In this document: in pieces, positions 1,118 to 29,610 of the stretch
How positions within the stretch are numbered: position 1 is the first letter of the stretch
How the letters are laid out: each line of letters starts with the position of its first letter
Sequence record: OZ346222.1
Reading direction: 5' to 3' (one strand)
DNA length: 64,000 bases
DNA from: a phage
The notes under the pieces: generated by a model
What the model was told of the DNA's origin: nothing
The model's input: the letters and a program-made list of their open reading frames with translations, nothing else
The model's database searches: none
Made by a program: the position numbers and the translations under genes

Positions 1118-1145
1118 GCCCTGCCCGAAAGGGTGGGGCTTTTTG
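1118..1145 (+). terminator. rho-independent terminator (GAAA tetraloop hairpin + T-run)
   Basis: GCCCTGCCC-GAAA-GGGTGGGGC stem-loop followed by TTTTT; identical element at 11516. Confidence 0.6.
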
Positions 1146-1927
1146 CATTAGGAGACAGCAAATTGAAATTTATCTACAAAGAACACTACCACAAAGGTGT
1201 TGTGTGGAGCCTGTTTGACGGATCTGGTGGTGCAGTCATTGACTGGGCAAAAGCTGGGTATCTGTGCCTGTGCTTTAATGCAGAAGGTGCTGATCACGGC
1301 AGTTATGCAGAGGTGATAACCGATCATCCCAACATTCACTATGTGGATTATTGGATTGACCCATGGTTCCCTCAGGAAACTTTTTGCATGTACCCAGCTC
1401 CAGACTTTATTCTTGCATTTCCTCCGTGCACGCATTTAGCGGTATCAGGTGCTGCACATTTTAAGAAAAAGCTGGCTAAGGATCCTTTGATCCAAATTAA
1501 TGCTGTAAAGGATGCTCGGGTTGCGGAAGAGTTGGGAGAGATTTACGATTGCCCGTGGCATGTAGAGAATCCTGTAGGGGTTATGTCCACACTGTGGCGA
1601 AAACCTGATTACCGTTTTCATCCTTCGGATTATGGTGGGTATTTACCGGAGGATGATGTAAACCCCTGGTTTCCTGAATTTATAGCTCCACGTGATGCCT
1701 ATCCAAAAATAACTTGCGGCTGGATAGGCAATGGATTTATAATCCCGGCCACAAAACCTGTCCCGCAAATAGTTGACGCGGTTAGCGGGTATTCCATGCA
1801 ACACGCCAAGCTGGGTGGAAAGAGTGCAAGAACGAAGATGATCCGAAGCCTCACGCCACGTGGCTGGGCAAAAGCCGTATTCTTAGCAAACGAGCCTGTA
1901 GTAAGGAGCAGAATTAATGGGAAGTAA
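1133..1927 (+). CDS. DNA (cytosine-5) methyltransferase-like protein
   Basis: C5-MTase-like motifs: LFDGSGG (motif I), FPPCTHLAVSG (PC motif IV), VENPVG (ENV motif VI); only 264 aa; true start may lie downstream since 5' end overlaps terminator. Confidence 0.55.
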   Translation: MGLFALGDSKLKFIYKEHYHKGVVWSLFDGSGGAVIDWAKAGYLCLCFNAEGADHGSYAEVITDHPNIHYVDYWIDPWFPQETFCMYPAPDFILAFPPCTHLAVSGAAHFKKKLAKDPLIQINAVKDARVAEELGEIYDCPWHVENPVGVMSTLWRKPDYRFHPSDYGGYLPEDDVNPWFPEFIAPRDAYPKITCGWIGNGFIIPATKPVPQIVDAVSGYSMQHAKLGGKSARTKMIRSLTPRGWAKAVFLANEPVVRSRINGK

Positions 1928-3995
1928 ATTTATGGCATCTGCATACAACCGTTTCGGTGAGCCAAACCCGAAAGCAACTAAGTATAAAAGTGGGGGAAGT
2001 GTGAAACGAGACTATCGTGATGAAAAAGAGGTTGAAACTGTAGAGACTGTTTTAGAAAATACTAAAATCGTCCCTGTCCCACAACAAAATATCGGTCTGA
2101 TGGCTGCACAATATTTTGGTGTGCGATCAGCATTATCCCAAGAAGATGGTGTGACAGTCACTGCAACATATTTCCCATATTACGACCGCTACGGAAATCT
2201 GTCCGGTTTCAAAAAGCGTGACTGGACGATTCCTAAAGAGCAAAGAGGCCATTTCTCCGTTGTTGGCATAGTAAAGGCTAACTCTCAGATGTTTGGTCAA
2301 AAGCTGTGTGCATCTTCCAACAACCGTAAGCAGATTAACGTTTGTGAGGGAGAAGGTGATGTTATTGCAGCATGGCAGGCTGCATATCAGATACAAGTAA
2401 AAGGGATTCTCACCAACGCTAAAGCCCCGGCAAAGGTGAAACAGTGGGCTAAAGAGGTCCAGGACGGGATCGATGCAGTTATCAACGGTGGCGATCTGGC
2501 AGGAAAACCATGCCTGCCTTTTGTTGGAATTAACTGTGGATGTGCAAACGCAGTAGATACTTTTGCAAACAATGAGAAGTTTATCCGTAGCTATGGAACA
2601 GTTGTGCTGGCAATGGATAACGATGCAGCTAACGAGGTAGAGAAGCAAAAACACGTCATTAAAGGTGTTGAGGCCACGCACAATATCGCAGCATTTTTGA
2701 TGGCTGATAACGTTTACCACGTAGAATACCCTGGTGAAGTAAATGACCCTGACGGGGTAAAAGATATCCGTGACATGCTGAAGGCTAAAAAGCTGGAAGA
2801 TATTGTCAACATGTTCCGGCACCCTGTTAAATATGTGCCTGATGCTGTGTCGGATTTAGAAGACTTCTCTATCGAGTCTTTGCGGAAAAAGACTTCCAAC
2901 GGGGTAGATATCAGCGCAGAGTTCCCAAAACTGCAAAAAATGCTAAAAGGCTTGCACAAAGGGACACTCGTAATGCTTACAGGGCCATCAGGGGGCGGTA
3001 AAACAACTGTAGCTAAAAAACTGGAACATTGTATTGCAAGATACCTAATGGACCCGACATGCCCGAAGGCTGATGACTATGAAGAGGATGATCGTCTATG
3101 TATGATCCATCTTGAGGAGGACCCGGAGGAAGCAATTAACTCCTTGTATGCAAACCAGTTAGGGTTTGATGTTAAAGAGTTTGTTGAAGATCCTAGCCAG
3201 TTTTTAACTGATCAAGAACACGCAGAGATTCACCAATCATGGGCAAAAGCTGGAAAAATCAAAGTGTTCAAACATTTCGGATCTATTCCGGTGGACGAGT
3301 TGATTACCAAGCTTAAGCAAATGGTTTGCCTGTACCATTGCCGTTATATTGTGCTGGATCACCTGTCCATGGTAATTTCAGGGCTTAATGTTAAGGATGA
3401 GCGAAAAGAACTGGACATGGCTATGACTCAGCTGGCTGCGTTTTGTAAGCAGTTTAACGTGTTTATCTTAGTGATCGCTCACCTCAAACGTACAGAGATT
3501 GTGCCTCCTAAGGACAAGGATGGTAACCCGTTACCTTTCTGGTATCCTGTGCGAAAAGAGAATTTGCGAGGATCGGCGGGGCTTGAACAGTTGAGTTGGG
3601 TAGTCATAGGTGTCGAGGCCGAAGAAATGGTGGATCGTTCTCGTGGACGTGTCCGTCTGGTAGGTCTTAAAAACCGTCCAGCAAAAACTTTAGGTATTGC
3701 TGACACTTTGGTTATGGACCCGCACACAGGTAAGTTCCATGATGCCAGTAATTGGTACTGGGACAAAGAAATGCAAATGTTTACAGACGGAGAAGGTGGG
3801 GAGGTTGTTTGGAGACCTCAGGCTATGTTTGAGGATCAGGAGCATGCAGTTGTAGAAACACCTATGGGCAAGGTTGTGGCTGATAAGGTTGTAACTCCTA
3901 CTGTTAAGCCTGTTGACACGCAGGAAGACCTCCAGTACGATGATCCATCCTCTGACCCGGTCCCTGGTTTTGAGGATGATGAAACGCCTTTTTAA
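1917..3995 (+). CDS. DNA primase/helicase (TOPRIM primase + DnaB-like helicase, T7 gp4-like)
   Basis: TOPRIM-like CEGEGD and MDNDAA motifs; Walker A GPSGGGKTT; Walker B IVLDHLS; acidic C-terminus ending DDETPF. Confidence 0.8.
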   Translation: MGSKFMASAYNRFGEPNPKATKYKSGGSVKRDYRDEKEVETVETVLENTKIVPVPQQNIGLMAAQYFGVRSALSQEDGVTVTATYFPYYDRYGNLSGFKKRDWTIPKEQRGHFSVVGIVKANSQMFGQKLCASSNNRKQINVCEGEGDVIAAWQAAYQIQVKGILTNAKAPAKVKQWAKEVQDGIDAVINGGDLAGKPCLPFVGINCGCANAVDTFANNEKFIRSYGTVVLAMDNDAANEVEKQKHVIKGVEATHNIAAFLMADNVYHVEYPGEVNDPDGVKDIRDMLKAKKLEDIVNMFRHPVKYVPDAVSDLEDFSIESLRKKTSNGVDISAEFPKLQKMLKGLHKGTLVMLTGPSGGGKTTVAKKLEHCIARYLMDPTCPKADDYEEDDRLCMIHLEEDPEEAINSLYANQLGFDVKEFVEDPSQFLTDQEHAEIHQSWAKAGKIKVFKHFGSIPVDELITKLKQMVCLYHCRYIVLDHLSMVISGLNVKDERKELDMAMTQLAAFCKQFNVFILVIAHLKRTEIVPPKDKDGNPLPFWYPVRKENLRGSAGLEQLSWVVIGVEAEEMVDRSRGRVRLVGLKNRPAKTLGIADTLVMDPHTGKFHDASNWYWDKEMQMFTDGEGGEVVWRPQAMFEDQEHAVVETPMGKVVADKVVTPTVKPVDTQEDLQYDDPSSDPVPGFEDDETPF

Positions 3996-4053
3996 TGTTT
4001 AACAAAGAGTGGGAGGGGTAGTACAACCGCCTCCCCTTTAAGGAGAACTGTAT

Positions 4054-6447
4054 ATGAGTATGTGGTCTTTCGATTTTGAGTCATCCGGTTTGCTGGAAGA
4101 CCCAGATCTTTATTATCACTGCGGTCTGTTTAAAGAGCTGAATAAGAACCGTTTTATGCTGTTCCTTCCTCTAAATGACCGCACACACTACTCCGAGGAG
4201 GATATAGAAAAGGCTAAGAACTTCATTCTGTCAAAGAAAACTCTTTATAAAGATTTTGAAGTTCGCATAGCAGATTTTTCGGAGTTGGAAGGTTGGCTTA
4301 CAGGCAATTCTGACTGGTCACCAACAGCTTTGAACTGCCATAACTGCTACAGTTATGACTTTATGCTAATGGAAAGATTATCCGGTATTCATTTTGATAT
4401 GTTCCGTGATCCTAAATGCATGGGGACTATCAACGACCACCAGGTTAACCTGTTTGATACGTTGGCTATGAGCCGAATCTTGTGGCCTGATCGCCCTTTA
4501 CCAAAAGGTTGTCCGGACGCTGTATTCAACCCGGTTACTAAGAAAATGCAACCTGTTGGTCCTCACGGCCTTATGGCATGGGGCTACGCCCTTGGTAACC
4601 AGAAAGTTCAAATTGATGACTGGCGCGATCTTCCGTTGTGGAAGTATGTGGATCGTGTATTCGAGGACGTTATCATCCAGGAGCTGCTCTGGAAAGAGCT
4701 GGTAGCGGAATCAAAAGGTGTATTCTACGGCAAATCTGACATGCAGAACTTTATGTACGATCCAGCCAAAGAGAAGCCGAAAGGGTTCAAGAAGATCACC
4801 TGGAAGAACGCATTACGTCGAGGCATGCTGCAGCACTTCCTGATGGAGCTGCAGGCCCGTCAGGGTGTATACTTCGACATAGATGGAGCTATTGCTTTAC
4901 GTGACCGTTGCGATGCGTGGATGAAAGAAATCGCTGATCGTGTTGAACCACAACTACCTTTAAAAGAGCTGTCAATGTCTCAGCGGCCCAAGTTCCCTGA
5001 AAAGCCGTTTAACCAAGACGGGACAATCTCTAATAATGGTTGGAAATGGTTAAAAGATAAGCTTGGCTATCCTGTAGACATGAGTGCTTTAGAGTTCAAA
5101 GCCCCGCCTAAGCGAGCATTTACCTCTACAGGAGATGTCAGCAAGATGGGGATAAAATGGTGTGAAGAGATGGGCTGCAAAGACCCCGATAAGATGGCTG
5201 ATTTCTTGAGAGGCTATATTAAGGGCACCTCCACACCACAACCCTTACCTAAAGAGCTGATGGATCAGGCAATAAGTGATCTGCAGCAGAAGCGAATGCC
5301 TGACTGCAAGATACCTATGAAAATCAGCAATCAGGACGACATCAAGCGATACCTAATCAGTGCTGGTTGGCTCCCAACAATGTGGAGAACTAAAGATGTA
5401 ACTAAAGACAGCAAGAAGAAAGCTTTACCTGATGCAGATGTTGATGCACGAGTATATGCATATATGGACGAGCTTTTGGAGTCAGAGTATTGTGACCTAA
5501 TTATCAACTTCTGGAACAAAACTGATGCTAAGTTCCAGACAACCGTGCACAAGTTCCGAAGCTTTCCTAACTCCGAAAGGATTAAAAAGGAAGTATTCGG
5601 GAAAATACGTAGAAAAGCCAGGGCACTTATTACTTCTCCGCAACTGAAAGATACGTTTGGACACCTATGCCCAAATCTTGAAAAATTGAACGGAGAGATG
5701 GCTAAAGATATCGTCTTGTGGTTATCATTGCGAAACCGCAGATCGGTCCTTGATCCAATCAAGGAGGATAAGGTTGATACTGGTCTTCTTAATCACCCAC
5801 GTTTGAAGATTGACCATAAGCTTCCTGCTAAAAGCTCTGGATTAACAAACACTTCCAGACAGAAACACAGTATTTGTGCAAACATGCCTAAACCATCTCC
5901 TAAAGTGGTTATGGGTAAAGAGATGCGTAGTCTGTGGGGTGTTCCTCCGGGATACTTTGAGATCGGTATTGACGGGTCCAACTTAGAGCAGCTTATCGGG
6001 GCTTGGGGTGCCTTTGAGTTCGACAACGGCCTGTATTATGATGTTGTAAGTAACGGAGACGCACACCAAAACAATGCTGAGGCATATACAAAAGTGGCAG
6101 GCAGAGAGGTGTCCCGTAACGACGGTAAACCTATCACGTATGGGGTTATGTACGGGGCACAAAAAGATAAAGTTGCAGATATGTTGGACATCTCCCCAGA
6201 GTTGGGACAAAGGGTAATCGATGCACTCTGGGATGCCAACCCAGGTCTTAAGGGGCGCAAAGAGGATCTGGAGAAATTCTGGGAAGCAACAGGTAAGAAG
6301 TTTATCTACTCTTTTGATGGTCATGCTATCTGGACCCGATCTAAACACTCTTTACTTAATGCATACCAACAAAATGGCGGTGCATCGTTGTGTGACTTAG
6401 TTGGAATACTCATGCACCACCAGATGGTGAAGCGTGGGTGGTACGAT
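4054..6447 (+). CDS. DNA polymerase, family A (exon 1: 3'-5' exonuclease and polymerase motifs A and B)
   Basis: Exo I FDFESSG; motif A-like IDGSNLEQL; motif B-like KPITYGVMYGA; uninterrupted ORF runs to TAA at 6481-6483 but lacks the conserved C-terminal region; 3' boundary set at proposed 5' splice site. Confidence 0.75.
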
Positions 6448-6753
6448 GAAGGTGTTCGTCGTATTATTTATTACCATAAATAACATTGTGGCTTCATAGA
6501 GTAATCTATGTCGAATAACCTCTTTAACTGCGGGAAGCCTAAACCTTATGGCAAGGTAATCCGCAACGAAGCGCTCAAAAGAGCGAACGCTCAGAGGCCA
6601 TTCCGAAAGGAAGTAGACCAGCAAGTGCGGTCGAAATGGGAGGATTCCTGTGGTTGCTTATCATAGGAATATGAGATGGTCCGATCCTACGTGAAAACGT
6701 ATGGCTATGCACGTAATGGTGCGGGGTAGCTTAACGACCTACCTGAACTATTG
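6448..6753 (+). other. putative group I self-splicing intron (about 306 nt, no ORF) in DNA polymerase gene
   Basis: Four in-frame stops between two same-frame polymerase ORFs; P-like CTGCGGGAAG (6527-6537), Q-like AATCCGCAACG (6558-6568), R-like GTAGACCAGCAAG (6613-6625), S-like ATGAGATGGTCCGA (6671-6684) with R/S covariation; exon UACGAU (6442-6447) can pair with intron GUCGUA (6458-6463) giving U.G at splice site; G at 6753. Confidence 0.5.
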
Positions 6754-7107
6754 GATGAGTACCAACTTCAAGTGCCTGACACACCGAAGTATAAGACTGT
6801 GTACACCTTCGACACAATTGAAGAACTGGAAGCATTTAAGGCAGAGCAGGAAGCCAAACTTCATGTGTTCGACGGTCATAAGTACAAAAAGGCACGCAAG
6901 GATGAGGACGGAAACGAAGTGGTTGACAGAGACGGAAACACGGTGTACGATCCTATCCTGAACGATGACGGAAAGCTTGAACTTATCTGGAGCCCTGTGG
7001 GTGAAATGGTGGTACATTGCTTCTGGCAAGCTTCTAAAATGATGGGAGTCCCGTTCCAGATCACAGGTGAATACTTGTGTGGTCGTAATTGGGGTGATTG
7101 TCACTAA
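6754..7107 (+). CDS. DNA polymerase, family A (exon 2: C-terminal region)
   Basis: Same frame as exon 1; ends NWGDCH, closely resembling the T7 gp5 C-terminus NWAICH; begins DEYQLQV, which after splicing would give WYD-DEYQ (motif C-like). Confidence 0.55.
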   Translation, partial: DEYQLQVPDTPKYKTVYTFDTIEELEAFKAEQEAKLHVFDGHKYKKARKDEDGNEVVDRDGNTVYDPILNDDGKLELIWSPVGEMVVHCFWQASKMMGVPFQITGEYLCGRNWGDCH

Positions 7108-7156
7108 TGTAAACTATCAACACATGGAAGTGTTGTTGAGCAAAGAGGAGACTTTT

Positions 7157-7441
7157 ATGGTAGTAGAACCAACAAAAACATTTACATCCATGACTATCCC
7201 TGTTATTATGCAGGTGGAGTGTGTTCAGGTATCTCAAGTGTGGCCTGGCACCAAAATCCCAACAGGGCCTGATTTCTTTCAGGTTGGGAAAGTGTACAAT
7301 GTCTGGAAGGCACCAGATTGTTACCCTTTCATTAAAGATGACCGTGGGATGCTGTGGTATCTTGGAAATGACTTGACACTGCACCTTGGGAATGCTATTA
7401 TTGCAGTATTCAGACTTAACAAGAAGGAGACCGATCAATGA
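7157..7441 (+). CDS. hypothetical protein (94 aa)
   Basis: ATG with GAGGAG RBS; ORF-track start at 7067 probably too far upstream. Confidence 0.45.
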   Translation: MVVEPTKTFTSMTIPVIMQVECVQVSQVWPGTKIPTGPDFFQVGKVYNVWKAPDCYPFIKDDRGMLWYLGNDLTLHLGNAIIAVFRLNKKETDQ

Positions 7442-7665
7442 CGACTTTGGTTAAAGCCACCTTTGTAGAAGAAAAGATGACAGACATGTCATTCTTTAAA
7501 GAAGGAAAGACCTACGAGGTTTATTACGATAAAGCTCGTGCAAACAAAATGATTAAAGACGAGGAAGGGGTTGACTGGTATATCTCTCACCTGGCAAACG
7601 GTGAGTATCATATCTACGGAACCACTTTGCTTGCCAAGTTTGTAGTTGTTGAAGAGGACCTATGA
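7438..7665 (+). CDS. hypothetical protein (75 aa)
   Basis: ATGA start/stop overlap with upstream gene. Confidence 0.45.
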   Translation: MTTLVKATFVEEKMTDMSFFKEGKTYEVYYDKARANKMIKDEEGVDWYISHLANGEYHIYGTTLLAKFVVVEEDL

Positions 7666-7856
7666 AAGTAAAGTATCTTGCTGAAGGTATGAATAGGTAT
7701 TTTACCCTTGGTGAAGAATATTGGCCCTTTACAAACAACGGCGATGTCTACGTGAAAGATAATTTCGGCACGCCGTGGTTTCTGCACTCTAATGGGCTGG
7801 GATACTCCATTTACTGCGGTGCAGTGAACAACACAACTCTTGCAGAGTTCGTTTAG
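7662..7856 (+). CDS. hypothetical protein (64 aa)
   Basis: ATGA overlap; in gene array. Confidence 0.4.
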   Translation: MKVKYLAEGMNRYFTLGEEYWPFTNNGDVYVKDNFGTPWFLHSNGLGYSIYCGAVNNTTLAEFV

Positions 7857-7866
7857 AGGAGGTAGG

Positions 7867-8238
7867 ATGTTAGTAAAAGGTACCCACACAGTCAAACAAC
7901 GTATTGAAGTTGAGATTGATGATTGTGAGCTGAAGCATATTTTACGGTCATGCTCCAACGTTTTGCTCCTTAGTATTCTTCAGGAGCGAGCGGAGAACGA
8001 GTTCTTAAATGCATTGGCAGGCCGTCCCGGTGACTTCTGTGTGCGTAAGCGTGGTGACAACAAGTCGTGGTTGTGGGAGATCGATGCCGACTGGGATTAC
8101 CACAAAAATGAGGGTATAGATGAGCCTATTCGTGAACTGACGGACAAAGAGATTCAGATGTACAATGAAGTTTGTCATTGGGCAACACGCCAACAAATTT
8201 ACCTAGACCCTGTGTGGCTGATTGAAAATAGTCGTTGA
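7867..8238 (+). CDS. hypothetical protein (123 aa)
   Basis: ATG 5 nt after GAGGAGGTAGG RBS. Confidence 0.5.
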   Translation: MLVKGTHTVKQRIEVEIDDCELKHILRSCSNVLLLSILQERAENEFLNALAGRPGDFCVRKRGDNKSWLWEIDADWDYHKNEGIDEPIRELTDKEIQMYNEVCHWATRQQIYLDPVWLIENSR

Positions 8239-25988: not shown

Positions 25989-26252
25989 ATGAAACGTCTT
26001 GATCAGCTTAAACTAGTTCAGTACATGGCCTACAAAGTTCTTGAAGTCCAAAAAGGTAGCAAAAAAGAGGTTTGCGAGAAAGCGTACAAGATCTTTACCC
26101 GTAAAAAAGATGATTGGATGTTACGCCAGACCAAAAAAGCCGATATCTTGGGGTACCTGGAAGAAGAGATCCGACTTGAAGAGCAAGAAGAGATCCGCCG
26201 CAGTGAGGCAGATTATCAGGCAGCCTGGGAAAACTGGATGAGCAACAAATAA
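25989..26252 (+). CDS. hypothetical protein (87 aa)
   Basis: Conserved leader/RBS. Confidence 0.5.
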   Translation: MKRLDQLKLVQYMAYKVLEVQKGSKKEVCEKAYKIFTRKKDDWMLRQTKKADILGYLEEEIRLEEQEEIRRSEADYQAAWENWMSNK

Positions 26253-26396: not shown

Positions 26397-26816
26397 ATGA
26401 ACATTAAATCTAATAATCCGGCATATAGCTTTGATAACGCTTTTTGTCACGGTCCGGCGGCGAAAGGATTCGAAATCGATGGTAAACTAATTATTGTCAA
26501 TGTTGACGGGGAAGAGGTTGCAGTATATCCGGTGGCAGACGTAAAAAGCCGTTTACAATGCCGCATGGATGTTACCGCCTATCAGCTTGATCCGGTCCGC
26601 ATAGTTGCCCTGGTCCTGGAAGAAGAAATTAAAGCCATGCACCATAGCAACAGATTTATTGGTGACGCGCAGGATAATATGAAAGTATGCCGCCATAAAG
26701 TTAATGAAGTGCTTAAAGAGTACGGCTATAAAGATCTTATGATCAAACGTGAGGAAAAATTCCGCTACCGTAACGACCTGGCAAATCGGATTTTTGAAAT
26801 ATACGAATCATTATAA
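26397..26816 (+). CDS. hypothetical protein (139 aa)
   Basis: RBS AAGAGG; last gene of rightward block. Confidence 0.5.
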   Translation: MNIKSNNPAYSFDNAFCHGPAAKGFEIDGKLIIVNVDGEEVAVYPVADVKSRLQCRMDVTAYQLDPVRIVALVLEEEIKAMHHSNRFIGDAQDNMKVCRHKVNEVLKEYGYKDLMIKREEKFRYRNDLANRIFEIYESL

Positions 26817-26834
26817 TTTTTTAACTGAATTATC

Positions 26835-26860
26835 AAGGGGCTTAGGCCCCTTTCTTTTTG
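26835..26860 (+). terminator. rho-independent terminator
   Basis: AAGGGGC-TTAG-GCCCCTT hairpin followed by TCTTTTT. Confidence 0.6.
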
Positions 26861-27477
26861 TCTGCTCTTCCCCCTACCATAAACGGCCCTACCTGGCAAG
26901 TGGAATAATTGACGAGCCATCAATCCCACACACTGTACAAATATACATGTAAAATAACTATTGCATAACCTTTCATTGTGTGGTAGCGGTGCTATTTTTT
27001 ACCTGTTTTCCTTCCAAAATTGCACGTAATGCAGCTATTGCACAAAATTTAACCTGATGCACATCTCCAATATCCTGTCAACAACTAAAAATCTTTATAA
27101 GTCATACACTTACACAGCATCGAAAGCGTGTTCTACGCGAAAAATCGAGTATAACTATAGCCGCCAGATCTCAGAATTCACGTACGCACGCCATTCTATA
27201 GCCTGCAAAGTATTTATTCCAACCACAGAATAACGGAATAGTCAATACCTGAATAAAATAATTATTCGTTTAAACTGCATAACATAAATCAGCTCAGGTG
27301 TCAACATTTTTCGTAAACAGTCTGAAATTGTCACTGTGAGTTATCATAAACAGAGAAATCTTTAGTCGTATAATGTTTACTGTACGTTACTATACTGACT
27401 GGAATCATTAGATGACTAATAGAAAGATAAGAAATAATTAACAATACAATTATTTTACCTGTAACAATAAGACAACT

Positions 27478-27726
27478 ATGCAAACGAATGGCATGGCGCG
27501 ACGGAGTCGCGACATAATATAAAAGCAGTAACCATCACCCCCGTGATGGTTTGTCTGCAATCTATTAATCAGATCATAGTTGCCTTGTATTCAGTTAATC
27601 ATGACATAATAAGCAAGGCAACTATAGATCTGCTAATAGTTGCCCTGCTTTTATATTATGTCATATATTATTAACTTGTTAATTGTTAACTTGCTAATTG
27701 TTTTCATGCAAACGAATGTCATGGCT
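27478..27726. repeat. palindrome-rich module flanked by 21-bp direct repeats
   Basis: ATGCAAACGAATG(G/T)CATGGC at 27478 and 27706; perfect 18-bp inverted repeat GACATAATATAAAAGCAG / CTGCTTTTATATTATGTC (27510/27645); 12-bp inverted repeat CATAGTTGCCTTG / CAAGGCAACTATG; several short hairpins. Confidence 0.75.
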
Positions 27727-27734
27727 TATCCTAT

Positions 27735-27805
27735 CTGTGTAAACAGTTAAGGTGTAAACTATCCAGGCGTAAACAGTCTATGCGGGAACAATCTATACGT
27801 GAACA
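27735..27805. repeat. iteron-like array of GT(A/G)AACAG octamers
   Basis: GTAAACAG / GTAAACTA / GTAAACAG / GTGAACAG spaced 10-20 bp; further copies near 27313, 28078, 28790. Confidence 0.6.
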
Positions 27806-28357
27806 GTGAAACATGAAATAATAACAGTCGTTATTGTGTCGAAAGTGTATAAGGTGTCAGACAAGTTTTTCTCCTCTTTGTCAAGTGCTGCATGAAAAAT
27901 TTACAAGCTTGTATGGTAGCATTTTTGCGGCCCTGTTTACATTCAGCGATGTATGTATAATCCTTGTTGTGTGGGCGTTTAGACGTCTAGACGGTCAGAA
28001 GTCTGCAGGTTAATACCTAATCTATCGGCTGCTAACTATATCCCACACAAATAGTAAGAAATATAATTGTTATGTGCGTAAACAGTAACTCATGTTATCA
28101 ATCCCTGTATGTATCGCCAGTGGTGCGCATAATGGGTATTATGTTAAATTGCCCGTAATGATAACTATTCTCACAATGATAGGTATTCTCATTCACTCCC
28201 ACAAGATAGGTTGCAAATGTTGTGCCACTGTGTGAACGGCCTAACCTATTAATTTGCCTCACTGCCTCGATATTTGAGAATTGTTATAAGAATGAGAAGT
28301 ATTCCCATTTCGTCCGCCTGGCAGCACTCCAGTCGCTACCGCTCATGACAGGGCAGA

Positions 28358-29610
28358 ACTAGACCCTCTTCAGATATTTCTGGCTGACTCTTCAGGTCTG
28401 TGTGGGAAAAGCCAACCTCTCCGGCGGCGGGGAGGGGGTCAATTAAAAAAAATTACGTGGTGCATGAAGCGCTCTTCAGGTAAGGCATGTGTTATGGGAT
28501 GAAACCCTCTTCAGGCAATGATATTTGTGGGTGTGATATTTGCTGGAAAGCCAGATATGACGGGACTCCTGGCGGGGCAGGGGTAGTACAGACAGGGAAA
28601 ATATGGGGGATGTAGTTGGGGAAATTGATCAGACAGGTAGAGTATGGAATATGTTACAAGTATGTTAAATAGGGAGGATGAATATCTGCAGGATTTGTGT
28701 GTAAAATCAAAGACTTAAGTGGTGTTGTGGTATTTTCTATAAATAATTCAAGTTTAATAGGTAATATTTGTCTCTATCCACTTTGTGTGGTAAACAGATT
28801 CAGATGAAATTGGTTTACAAGTGTATACATAATATACAAATTAAAGATACAAGAAACCCCCCTCCCCCTTCGGCTACCATTCACCTTTTCCTCTGACTGG
28901 TACTTAAACACTTATTCAGACTCTTCAGGTTATCACCCATATATCATATGGCAGTGACTGGTGTCCTCCGGCCCCTCTTTCGTCACCCGTCCGCTTCGCC
29001 ATGCTAATGCCATAGCCAATGGTTCGGTTGTTCACTCTGTTCACTCAGGTGTATCTCCATACCCCTTCAAACCGAAGAGAACAGAAAACCCGAATTACTC
29101 GGTAAAAGAAAAGAGAAGAACTTAATTTTATCAGGATAGGCAAGAATGTCAAGGCATGACTGCTCACTAAACAAGCAAACAGTCATGTGTGGAAGGTAAG
29201 TGATTGTGGTGGTGGGAAATTTAGTTGAAAGATGTGTTATAGGTGCGCTTCCAGCACTTTGGCCGGGCAGCTAATTGTGTGTCAGTCCAGCGGTTCATCC
29301 TCTACTTCACTGAAATCAATGTTCATGGTCTCCTCCCAACCATCGATCTCAGCACAAGAGTGGAGTTCTTTAGGGTTTACTCCCAAAGCCTCAGCAACAG
29401 AGTCTATATTTAACACCTCTGGCAGGTATGATTCATCGAATTCAAGGTAAATCAGGCCACGAGTGTTGTCAGCTCCACCAAATATCTCTATCTTCATGAA
29501 ATCTCCTCTGGAAATGAGAGTGTGAACAGGGTTTTATACGTTCTAATGCACAGGAATTATACACGTTTGCCTCTTCAGGCCATGCTTTAGCATGAGGAAC
29601 CTGTGTGGGC
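28358..29610. repeat. dispersed CTCTTCAG(G) motifs, often followed by TGTGTGGG
   Basis: Six copies on the same strand (about 28358, 28388, 28465, 28505, 28918, 29567) within a G/T-rich non-coding stretch. Confidence 0.6.
29282..29497 (-). CDS. hypothetical acidic protein (71 aa)
   Basis: Last gene of leftward block; begins MKIEI like several paralogs. Confidence 0.45.
   Translation of the reverse strand: MKIEIFGGADNTRGLIYLEFDESYLPEVLNIDSVAEALGVNPKELHSCAEIDGWEETMNIDFSEVEDEPLD

Follow-up and report, generated by a model that had tools for sequence, protein, structure and literature searches.

In phage λ and SPP1, repeated short sites, the R sites of cosB beside cosN and the pacL and pacR boxes, respectively, adjoin a sequence-specific cleavage site located in a short palindrome. 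These systems generate cohesive ends or a headful series, not a duplicated repeat such as the 459-bp one described below, and the number of sites is fixed among close relatives. The iterons of plasmids and lambdoid phages are 17–22 bp long, are spaced about 22 bp apart, and have a cognate Rep or O adjacent to them. In the satellite phage P4, the C-terminal domain of the alpha primase-helicase binds the type 1 repeats of the origin. The annotated ‘ori type 1 repeats’ of P4 (NC_001609) are octamers, TGTTCACC (GGTGAACA on the other strand), which occur in the contexts GGTGAACAGT and GGTGAACAGA. The genome of phage T7 (NC_001604) begins with a 160-bp terminal repeat, followed from nt 175 by 12 CCTAAAG units with a 13-bp period. 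A similar array precedes the right repeat. The terminal repeat itself contains three or four copies (nt 17, 41, and 60). A T7 secondary origin is located just beyond the left array, and the function of the T7 arrays has, to our knowledge, never been established.

The locus described here lies in a 64,000-nucleotide stretch of phage DNA (OZ346222.1; hereafter the window), which belongs to a Vequintavirus, an rV5-like E. coli myophage. It contains an array of short direct repeats (27739–27807, + strand), whose closest analogue in layout is the pair of T7 SRL/SRR CCTAAAG arrays and whose closest analogue in sequence is the P4 origin iteron. The surrounding 2 kb matched 122 phage records with 90–97% identity, nearly all of them from Vequintavirus, rV5-like E. 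coli myophages of 135–140 kb, and no DNA match to the surroundings of the array was found outside this genus. The sub-region 27300–28100 was just 80–90% identical to the same phages in most records and is therefore a local hot spot of variation. The array is located in a 2.46-kb ORF-free region (26817–29281) between convergent gene blocks, which also holds a homologue of the direct terminal repeat (DTR) and its flanking elements. A terminator-like hairpin (26835–26852) lies past the + strand genes, which stop at 26816, and the − strand genes start at 29497. In nine of ten further contigs no genes were called across this stretch. The ORFs flanking the region had no Pfam or PHROG function, both blocks being composed of small genes, and all homologues of a neighbouring 139-aa protein were at least 81% identical. 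No Rfam family or tRNA was matched within the region. In the rV5 genome paper the region was drawn as a grey ‘non-coding’ box, with no function given (PMC3606486).

The position of the terminal repeat was obtained from records whose ends carry it. The EdH4 record (MK327930) has an exact 459-bp repeat at both ends, which maps in reverse to window positions 28318→27860, and the ECP2309 record from another laboratory (PP464953) has the same repeat with the same boundaries. Because these exact end repeats map there, the segment 27860–28318 (459 bp) was assigned as the homologue of the repeat at the virion ends. The window represents the chromosome in single-copy, concatemer-like form, and the DTR was placed in it by homology to the EdH4 and ECP2309 record ends. 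Published lengths of the terminal repeat are 458 bp (PMC6563267) and 459 bp (PMC7471380), and the homologue measured 458–460 bp in 10 further loci. Its interior contained no indels in a 16-sequence alignment, with a column conservation of at least 0.93 and a gap fraction of ~0. Both boundaries, marked here by a slash, sit in short palindromes, TGTCAGACA and GCCTGGC, and the boundary contexts xxTGTCA/GACAAGTT, TGTCA/GACAAGTTTT, and CCGTCCGCC/TGGCAGC were invariant in all loci examined. Several records of the genus begin inside the ORF-free region. Headful packaging, inferred for one Vequintavirus isolate by a PhageTerm-based approach (PMC13211470), conflicts with fixed ends and is regarded as weaker evidence than the exact end repeats.

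Exact copies of the octamer GTRAACAG were located on the + strand at 27313, 27739, 27769, 27799, 28078, and 28790, and on the − strand at 27933. The preliminary description of this DNA, made from the letters alone, had placed isolated copies near 27313, 28078, and 28790 and an inverted one near 27930, and each of these was recovered as an exact octamer. A further copy placed at 27348 was found to be ATAAACAG (27346), which has one mismatch and was not conserved in relatives. The reported cluster within about 70 bp was real, but its count of four copies was not: the array contains three exact units (27739, 27769, and 27799) and two interleaved degenerate units (27754, GTAAACTA, and 27784, GGGAACAA). 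The unit cores read GTAAACAGT (27739), GTAAACTAT (27754), GTAAACAGT (27769), GGGAACAAT (27784), and GTGAACAGT (27799), and a decayed sixth unit, TGAAATAAT, follows the array at 27814. The spacing had been called regular, and the five units indeed keep a strict 15-bp period. The self-identity of the array, ~0.25 at other lags, rises to 0.63 at lag 15 and to 0.58 at lag 30.

When the copies were counted against dinucleotide-preserving local shuffles, they proved to be extremely clustered at this locus. The segment 27300–28100 contained 6 exact copies against 0.07 expected, 27300–28800 contained 7 against 0.10, and 27735–27810 contained 3 against 0.02, and none of 5000 local shuffles reached the observed number in any of the three. 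The Poisson probability of the clustering was ~2e-12, with the rate taken from the window outside the ORF-free region (26860–29230). The excess over the whole window was only marginal, with 11 copies against 4.4 expected and 1 of 100 shuffles reaching 11. The remaining 61.6 kb of the window held only 3 copies, which suits a cis element of a single locus and not a global operator, and no copy of the motif lies between genes elsewhere in the window.

The array was compared among 26 Vequintavirus sequences, consisting of the window and 25 loci, 10 of which came from contigs with full flanks. It was present at the same place in 26/26 sequences, with 1–10 units spaced 15–16 bp apart, a core of YGTRAAYAGT, and free spacers. 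The order of elements was the same in 25/25 loci: a 20-mer containing CATGCAAACGAATGGCATGG(C), the GTAAACAG array, two to six GTGTCA-type units spaced 9–11 bp apart, and the cut site. In the window, the conserved 20-mer ATGCAAACGAATGTCATGGC (27706–27725, + strand) is the second copy of a direct repeat, the first being located at 27478–27497, and the array starts 13–15 nt past the CATGCAAACGAATGGCATGG match in this box (14 nt in most loci). In an alignment of 16 genomes, the ORF-free region was 93–100% conserved and indel-free except for three stretches. The first of these, 27660–27860, lies outside one DTR boundary and contains the array (conservation 0.56–0.86, gap fraction 0.35–0.75). The second, 28310–28360, lies outside the other boundary, and the third is 28410–28460. 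Thus both outer flanks of the DTR carry unstable short repeats, of different families, around an interior of constant length.

This instability would be expected if the array were a neutral minisatellite, with units made and eroded by slippage and recombination at recombinogenic chromosome ends and with no sequence-specific function. No other part of the region varies as much as the array segment, phages otherwise 90–97% identical have anywhere from 1 to 10 units, and the other DTR boundary also has unstable repeats of a different sequence. However, the distribution of the variation contradicts a neutral minisatellite. Among 75 units defined by the period and not by the motif, core positions carried 1.2–1.3 bits against 0.3 bits for the spacers, with a small ascertainment bias from the choice of two offsets per unit, and a T followed the octamer in 75/75 units; recent duplication alone would have left the reverse pattern. 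In addition, the isolated copies at 27313, 27933(−), 28078, and 28790 were largely conserved. Of the 16 aligned genomes, 15 retain the copy TTTTTCGTAAACAG (27313–27320, + strand), with variable bases directly downstream of it, and 13 retain the copy TGTGTGGTAAACAG (28790–28797, + strand), which lies beyond the DTR. None of the genomes examined had lost the array completely.

The divergent locus L003 gave a further comparison. Its ORF-free region aligned to the window in three short patches only, but its architecture was the same. The units ATAAACAAT, GCGAAACTAT, GGAATAGT, and GGAAACAGT precede the predicted boundary at the same relative position, and GTGAACAG or GTAAACAG (GTRAACAG) copies lie inside the putative terminal repeat. 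The conserved core, the diverged spacers, and the persistence in L003 indicate that the core is under selection rather than a product of recent duplication alone, and a wholly neutral origin of the array is considered improbable.

The array abuts the terminal-repeat boundary through a second series of repeats. Its end is ~53–54 bp from the DTR boundary at 27860, outside the repeat, and the gap is filled by an array of GTGTC, GTGTA, and GTGTCA units with a 9-bp period (27836–27859, + strand), which in relatives has two to six units with a period of 9–11 bp. The last GTGTCA unit forms half of the 9-bp palindrome TGTCA/GACA at the cut site. Together, the main array and the GTGTCA repeats span 125 bp up to this boundary. 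On the left, the conserved 20-mer is preceded by an AT-rich tandem repeat, ATTGTTAACTTGCTA (27667–27702, + strand), with 26% GC and 2.4 copies of a 15-bp unit. Other cassettes occupy its site in some relatives, and in the annotation of phage isim it is marked only as a repeat_region. Further to the left is a structured element (27511–27662), in which a perfect 18-bp inverted repeat (27511–27528 and 27645–27662) encloses nested hairpins (z = −10.1). Since the divergent sequences were misaligned by MAFFT, this element was compared across lineages directly through its inverted repeats. The sequence of the arms differed, while their complementarity was perfect in two divergent lineages (17/17 in L003 and 15/15 in L005).

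When the locus was compared with T7, the arrangement was similar in several respects. In both, a short conserved core recurs in tandem with a period below 20 bp (13 bp in T7, 15–16 bp here) and with free spacers, the array begins within tens of bp of a short direct terminal repeat, on its outer side (15 bp away in T7, ~53 bp here), and extra copies of the motif occur inside the repeat (here at 27933–27940 on the − strand and 28078–28085 on the + strand). The motifs are unrelated, and the phages are non-homologous, a podovirus in T7 and a 137-kb myovirus here. In T7 the same heptamer is found on both flanks, whereas here GCACTCCWGTMG and CTCTTCAG(G) repeats lie to the right of 28318, with one GTAAACAG copy at 28790. 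Furthermore, a second array (GTGTCA) lies here between the main array and the cut. Since the function of the T7 arrays is not established, the analogy carries no proven mechanism. The short repeated sites at a palindromic cut also resemble those of λ and SPP1, and the GTGTCA units are about one helical turn apart.

From its position, its architecture, and the T7 parallel, a role of the array in packaging was ranked first. We tentatively propose that it is a putative binding array for chromosome-end processing and packaging, a reading that we hold as possible and not as established. The array would then be a multi-site platform for a sequence-specific DNA-binding protein acting at the chromosome end, most likely as part of a packaging or concatemer-junction signal in a phage with a short direct terminal repeat. 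Replicated concatemers would contain one 459-bp repeat between genome units, and the terminase would cut exactly at TGTCA/GACA (27859/27860) and CCGCC/TGGCAG (28318/28319). The 9-bp sites YGTRAAYAGT, spaced 15–16 bp apart, and the GTGTCA repeats, spaced ~10 bp apart, would recruit and orient the terminase small subunit or, alternatively, an accessory end-binding protein. Comparable layouts would be cosB next to cosN in λ and the heptamer arrays flanking the terminal repeat of T7. We infer from the sequence comparisons that a protein binds the array, that this protein may be the terminase, and that the array may have a role in cutting.

Several features weigh against the packaging role. A role in precise positioning is unlikely because the unit number falls to one, with a single good unit in the viable phages CM1, navn, and L036, and because the distance from array to cut varies among loci. 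In addition, the other boundary has a different repeat family, whereas the T7 flanks share one motif. The four readings considered are not mutually exclusive, and after packaging they were ranked in the order of replication origin, neutral minisatellite, and operator.

The preliminary description had called the repeats iteron-like and typical of a binding array for an initiator or regulator. The binding-array part stood, as the strict period, the conserved core with free spacers, the position kept in 25/25 loci, and the match to the P4 core fit the behaviour of a selected protein-binding array. For the initiator part no specific pointer was found, given the lack of a Rep gene, a Pox_D5 domain, and DnaA boxes, the atypical period, and the copy number of 1–10. 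As an origin, the units would be iterons for a phage initiator that melts the AT-rich repeat and loads the T7-gp4-like primase-helicase, and we consider this unlikely. The layout is origin-like in that the 26% GC, 15-bp tandem repeat (27667–27702) adjoins the direct-repeat array, as iterons of plasmids and lambdoid phages lie beside an AT-rich stretch. Unlike those iterons, with their 17–22 bp units ~22 bp apart, the array has a 9-bp core, a 15–16 bp period, no adjacent initiator gene, and a highly variable copy number (1–10 among close relatives). At this period, neighbouring sites face opposite sides of the DNA, and only alternate units (30 bp) are in phase. Nearby, no Rep or initiator gene was recognized, and the flanking ORFs lacked a Pfam or PHROG function. 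A remote homologue of an initiator may be encoded in the genome.

Host initiator sites and strand asymmetry also bear on an origin. In L003, three perfect DnaA boxes (TGTGGATAA) were found ~300 bp away, inside the putative terminal repeat and thus in a different sub-region, but the ORF-free region of the window contained no DnaA box with one mismatch or fewer. The cumulative GC skew of the window turns at this locus, but the turn coincides with convergent transcription. The authors of the rV5 genome paper noted that GC-skew turns coincide with changes in the direction of transcription (PMC3606486).

The array also resembles the P4 origin. Its core equals the annotated P4 origin type 1 repeat in context, GGTGAACAG(T/A), which shows that an origin can use octamer iterons of such a sequence. 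In P4 the origin reads GGTGAACAGTGGTGAACAGACGGTGAACAGT...AGGTGAACAGAGGTGAACAGT, containing GTGAACAG and the extended core GTGAACAGT, which matches P4 at 8–9 positions, and GTGAACAG(T) is common to the units and the P4 context. In both cases, octamer-scale direct repeats are clustered in an E. coli phage. In P4, however, the spacing is 10–11 bp and inverted copies are included. The base before GTRAACAG, which corresponds to the leading G of the P4 octamer, was G in 0/69 units, and the third position was A in 43/69 units while P4 has G.

A counterpart of the P4 alpha protein was searched for in the window and in phage records. A tblastn search of P4 alpha against the window gave nothing below E = 0.1. 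The alpha C-terminal domain (Pox_D5, PF03288) matched no Vequintavirus among 50,697 phage records, its matches there being confined to P4-like and Pasteurella satellite-like elements. The replication module of the window (1133–6483) encodes an MTase-like protein, a gp4-like helicase, and PolA. The ORF 1133–1927, upstream of the helicase, was considered as a P4-alpha-like initiator and rejected, since it carries C5-methyltransferase motifs and its weak alpha match is therefore noise. The C-terminus of the gp4-like helicase was likewise rejected as an alpha-like domain, having an acidic tail instead. Because no alpha-like binder was found and the leading G is absent, the P4 match is a resemblance in sequence, possibly by chance, and no evidence of membership. 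With the array ~54 bp outside the DTR boundary, a role at the chromosome end or in packaging is at least as likely as an initiator role, and a packaging landing pad at the edge of the 459-bp DTR is likelier than a classical array of replication-origin iterons.

Doubtful, and the least probable of the readings, is an operator, at which a phage or host transcription factor would control promoters of the terminal region, small RNAs, or DNA entry. Several isolated copies lie close to promoter-like sequences: the copy at 27313 is upstream of TAAACA-16-TATAAT (27347–27374), the inverted copy at 27933 overlaps a TTTACA that precedes a perfect TATAAT (27955) by 14 bp, and another TATAAT (28063) lies 10 bp ahead of the copy at 28078. 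Small transcripts are also suggested by terminator-like hairpins, which occur on both strands, and by the covarying structured element at 27511–27662. However, the promoter matches were weak as a class, with 18 found against 10.5 expected in shuffles, and the array itself contained no convincing promoter. Neither the lack of an Rfam match in the region nor the absence of the motif from intergenic regions elsewhere in the window favours a regulatory site.

Both the ‘non-coding box’ and the short terminal repeat have been published before, and in some GenBank records the array is annotated as a bare repeat_region. In the literature, no paper was found that places the repeat in the box, describes the flanking arrays, or gives a function to the region or the array. 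Under the packaging role ranked first here, a broader claim can be formulated, in which the array, the GTGTCA repeats, and the covarying 150-nt hairpin would together form a previously undescribed concatemer-junction processing signal of large short-repeat myoviruses. A phage protein would read P4-iteron-like 9-mers, and the signal may double as an end-proximal origin. This combination is quite unlikely, but if true, it would provide a tractable, T7-independent model for the cutting and duplication of exact terminal repeats. The rV5-like phages are widely isolated and are present in phage-therapy cocktails and in the BASEL reference collection, and their ‘non-coding box’ has stood without explanation since 2013. 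The mapped DTR and arrays supply concrete cis elements for it. The map explains many database records that were opened or mis-assembled here, and it shows genome engineers which bases to spare when rebooting or re-circularising these phages. The variation in array copy number provides a fine-scale strain marker.

The outer flank of the other DTR boundary, CCGCC/TGGCAG (28319–28520, + strand), is rich in indels and carries GCACTCCWGTMG units of variable copy number followed by CTCTTCAG(G) repeats. The latter are located at 28366, 28388, 28472, 28507, 28921, and 29571, all on the + strand, and TGTGGG often comes directly after them. The sequence CTCTTCAGG was considered as a genome-wide signal and rejected, since three distant copies sit inside genes (codons P-E-E, − strand); therefore only the five copies in the ORF-free region count. 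A link to FtsK and KOPS was dropped because Pfam gave no FtsK match for the 87-aa gene (25989–26252) named ‘DNA translocase FtsK’ in some records. Three KOPS-like GGGNAGGG motifs were observed at 28429–28867.

The ORF-free region is preceded by a gene for 139 aa (window 26397–26816), which was also found, with approximately 89% identity, in Phapecoctavirus, a member of a different subfamily. There, the gene again adjoined a non-coding region containing an exact 328-bp terminal repeat (NC_052662, Mt1B1_P17, positions 1–328 and 150875–151202). This arrangement suggests a gene-plus-chromosome-end module common to the two subfamilies.

In the record of Shigella phage CM1 (L014, MK962749), the terminal repeat was present twice in tandem in the region homologous to window 27800–28330, and the two copies were separated by 63 bp of left-flank sequence. 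This doubling is probably an assembly artefact arising from the physical ends. The start point of several other records fell inside this region.

To the left of the main array of GTRAACAG-type units, a perfect 18-bp inverted repeat enclosed nested hairpins (window 27511–27662), with a DNA folding energy of −56 kcal/mol and z = −10. Counterparts were located at 7131–7246 in the divergent relative L003 and at 7030–7156 in the related locus L005. The arms had changed in sequence yet remained fully complementary in two divergent lineages (17/17 and 15/15), and the pairing therefore covaries. A 20-bp direct repeat lay on either side of the element, with copies at 27478 and 27706. The element could be a hairpin or cruciform for end processing, or a small RNA.

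Inside the terminal repeat, the 17–18-bp motif AATGATAAnTATTCTCA occurred in tandem, at window 28157–28191 and 28291–28307, and was also located at approximately 7980 in L003 and at 7448 and 7632 in L005. The motif was common to the window and a Phapecoctavirus-like contig, whose version, GATAATGATAATTATTCTC, agrees with 17 of the 19 positions of the E. coli Fur-box consensus. The AATGATAAnTATTCTCA motif may be a site for a host factor or a phage protein in the terminal repeat. The palindrome CGTTTAGACGTCTAGACG (window 27976–27993), also inside the terminal repeat, contained tandem AGACGTCT-like octamers resembling the MetJ box; another palindrome occupied the equivalent position in L003. The putative terminal repeat of L003 contained three perfect DnaA boxes (TGTGGATAA) within 42 bp (7845–7886), and none was found in the ORF-free region of the window.

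To the right of the terminal repeat, six plus-strand copies of CTCTTCAG(G) were observed in the ORF-free region (window 28366–29579), often followed by TGTGGG. Five were exact 9-mers, compared with 0.45 expected window-wide, and the repeats were kept in relatives, including the divergent L003. Three further copies in the window, all within genes, are probably coincidental. Three of the nine KOPS-like GGGNAGGG octamers in the window fell within 440 bp in convergent orientations, at 28429–28436 (+), 28575–28582 (+), and 28860–28867 (−). The label "FtsK translocase", given in some records to a nearby 87-aa gene, had no Pfam support.

A replication module, at the left of the window (1133–6483), comprised a T7-gp4-like primase-helicase of 692 aa whose C-terminal tail is acidic, a family-A DNA polymerase, and a 264-aa ORF with C5-cytosine-methyltransferase-like motifs (FDGSGG, PPC, and ENP).
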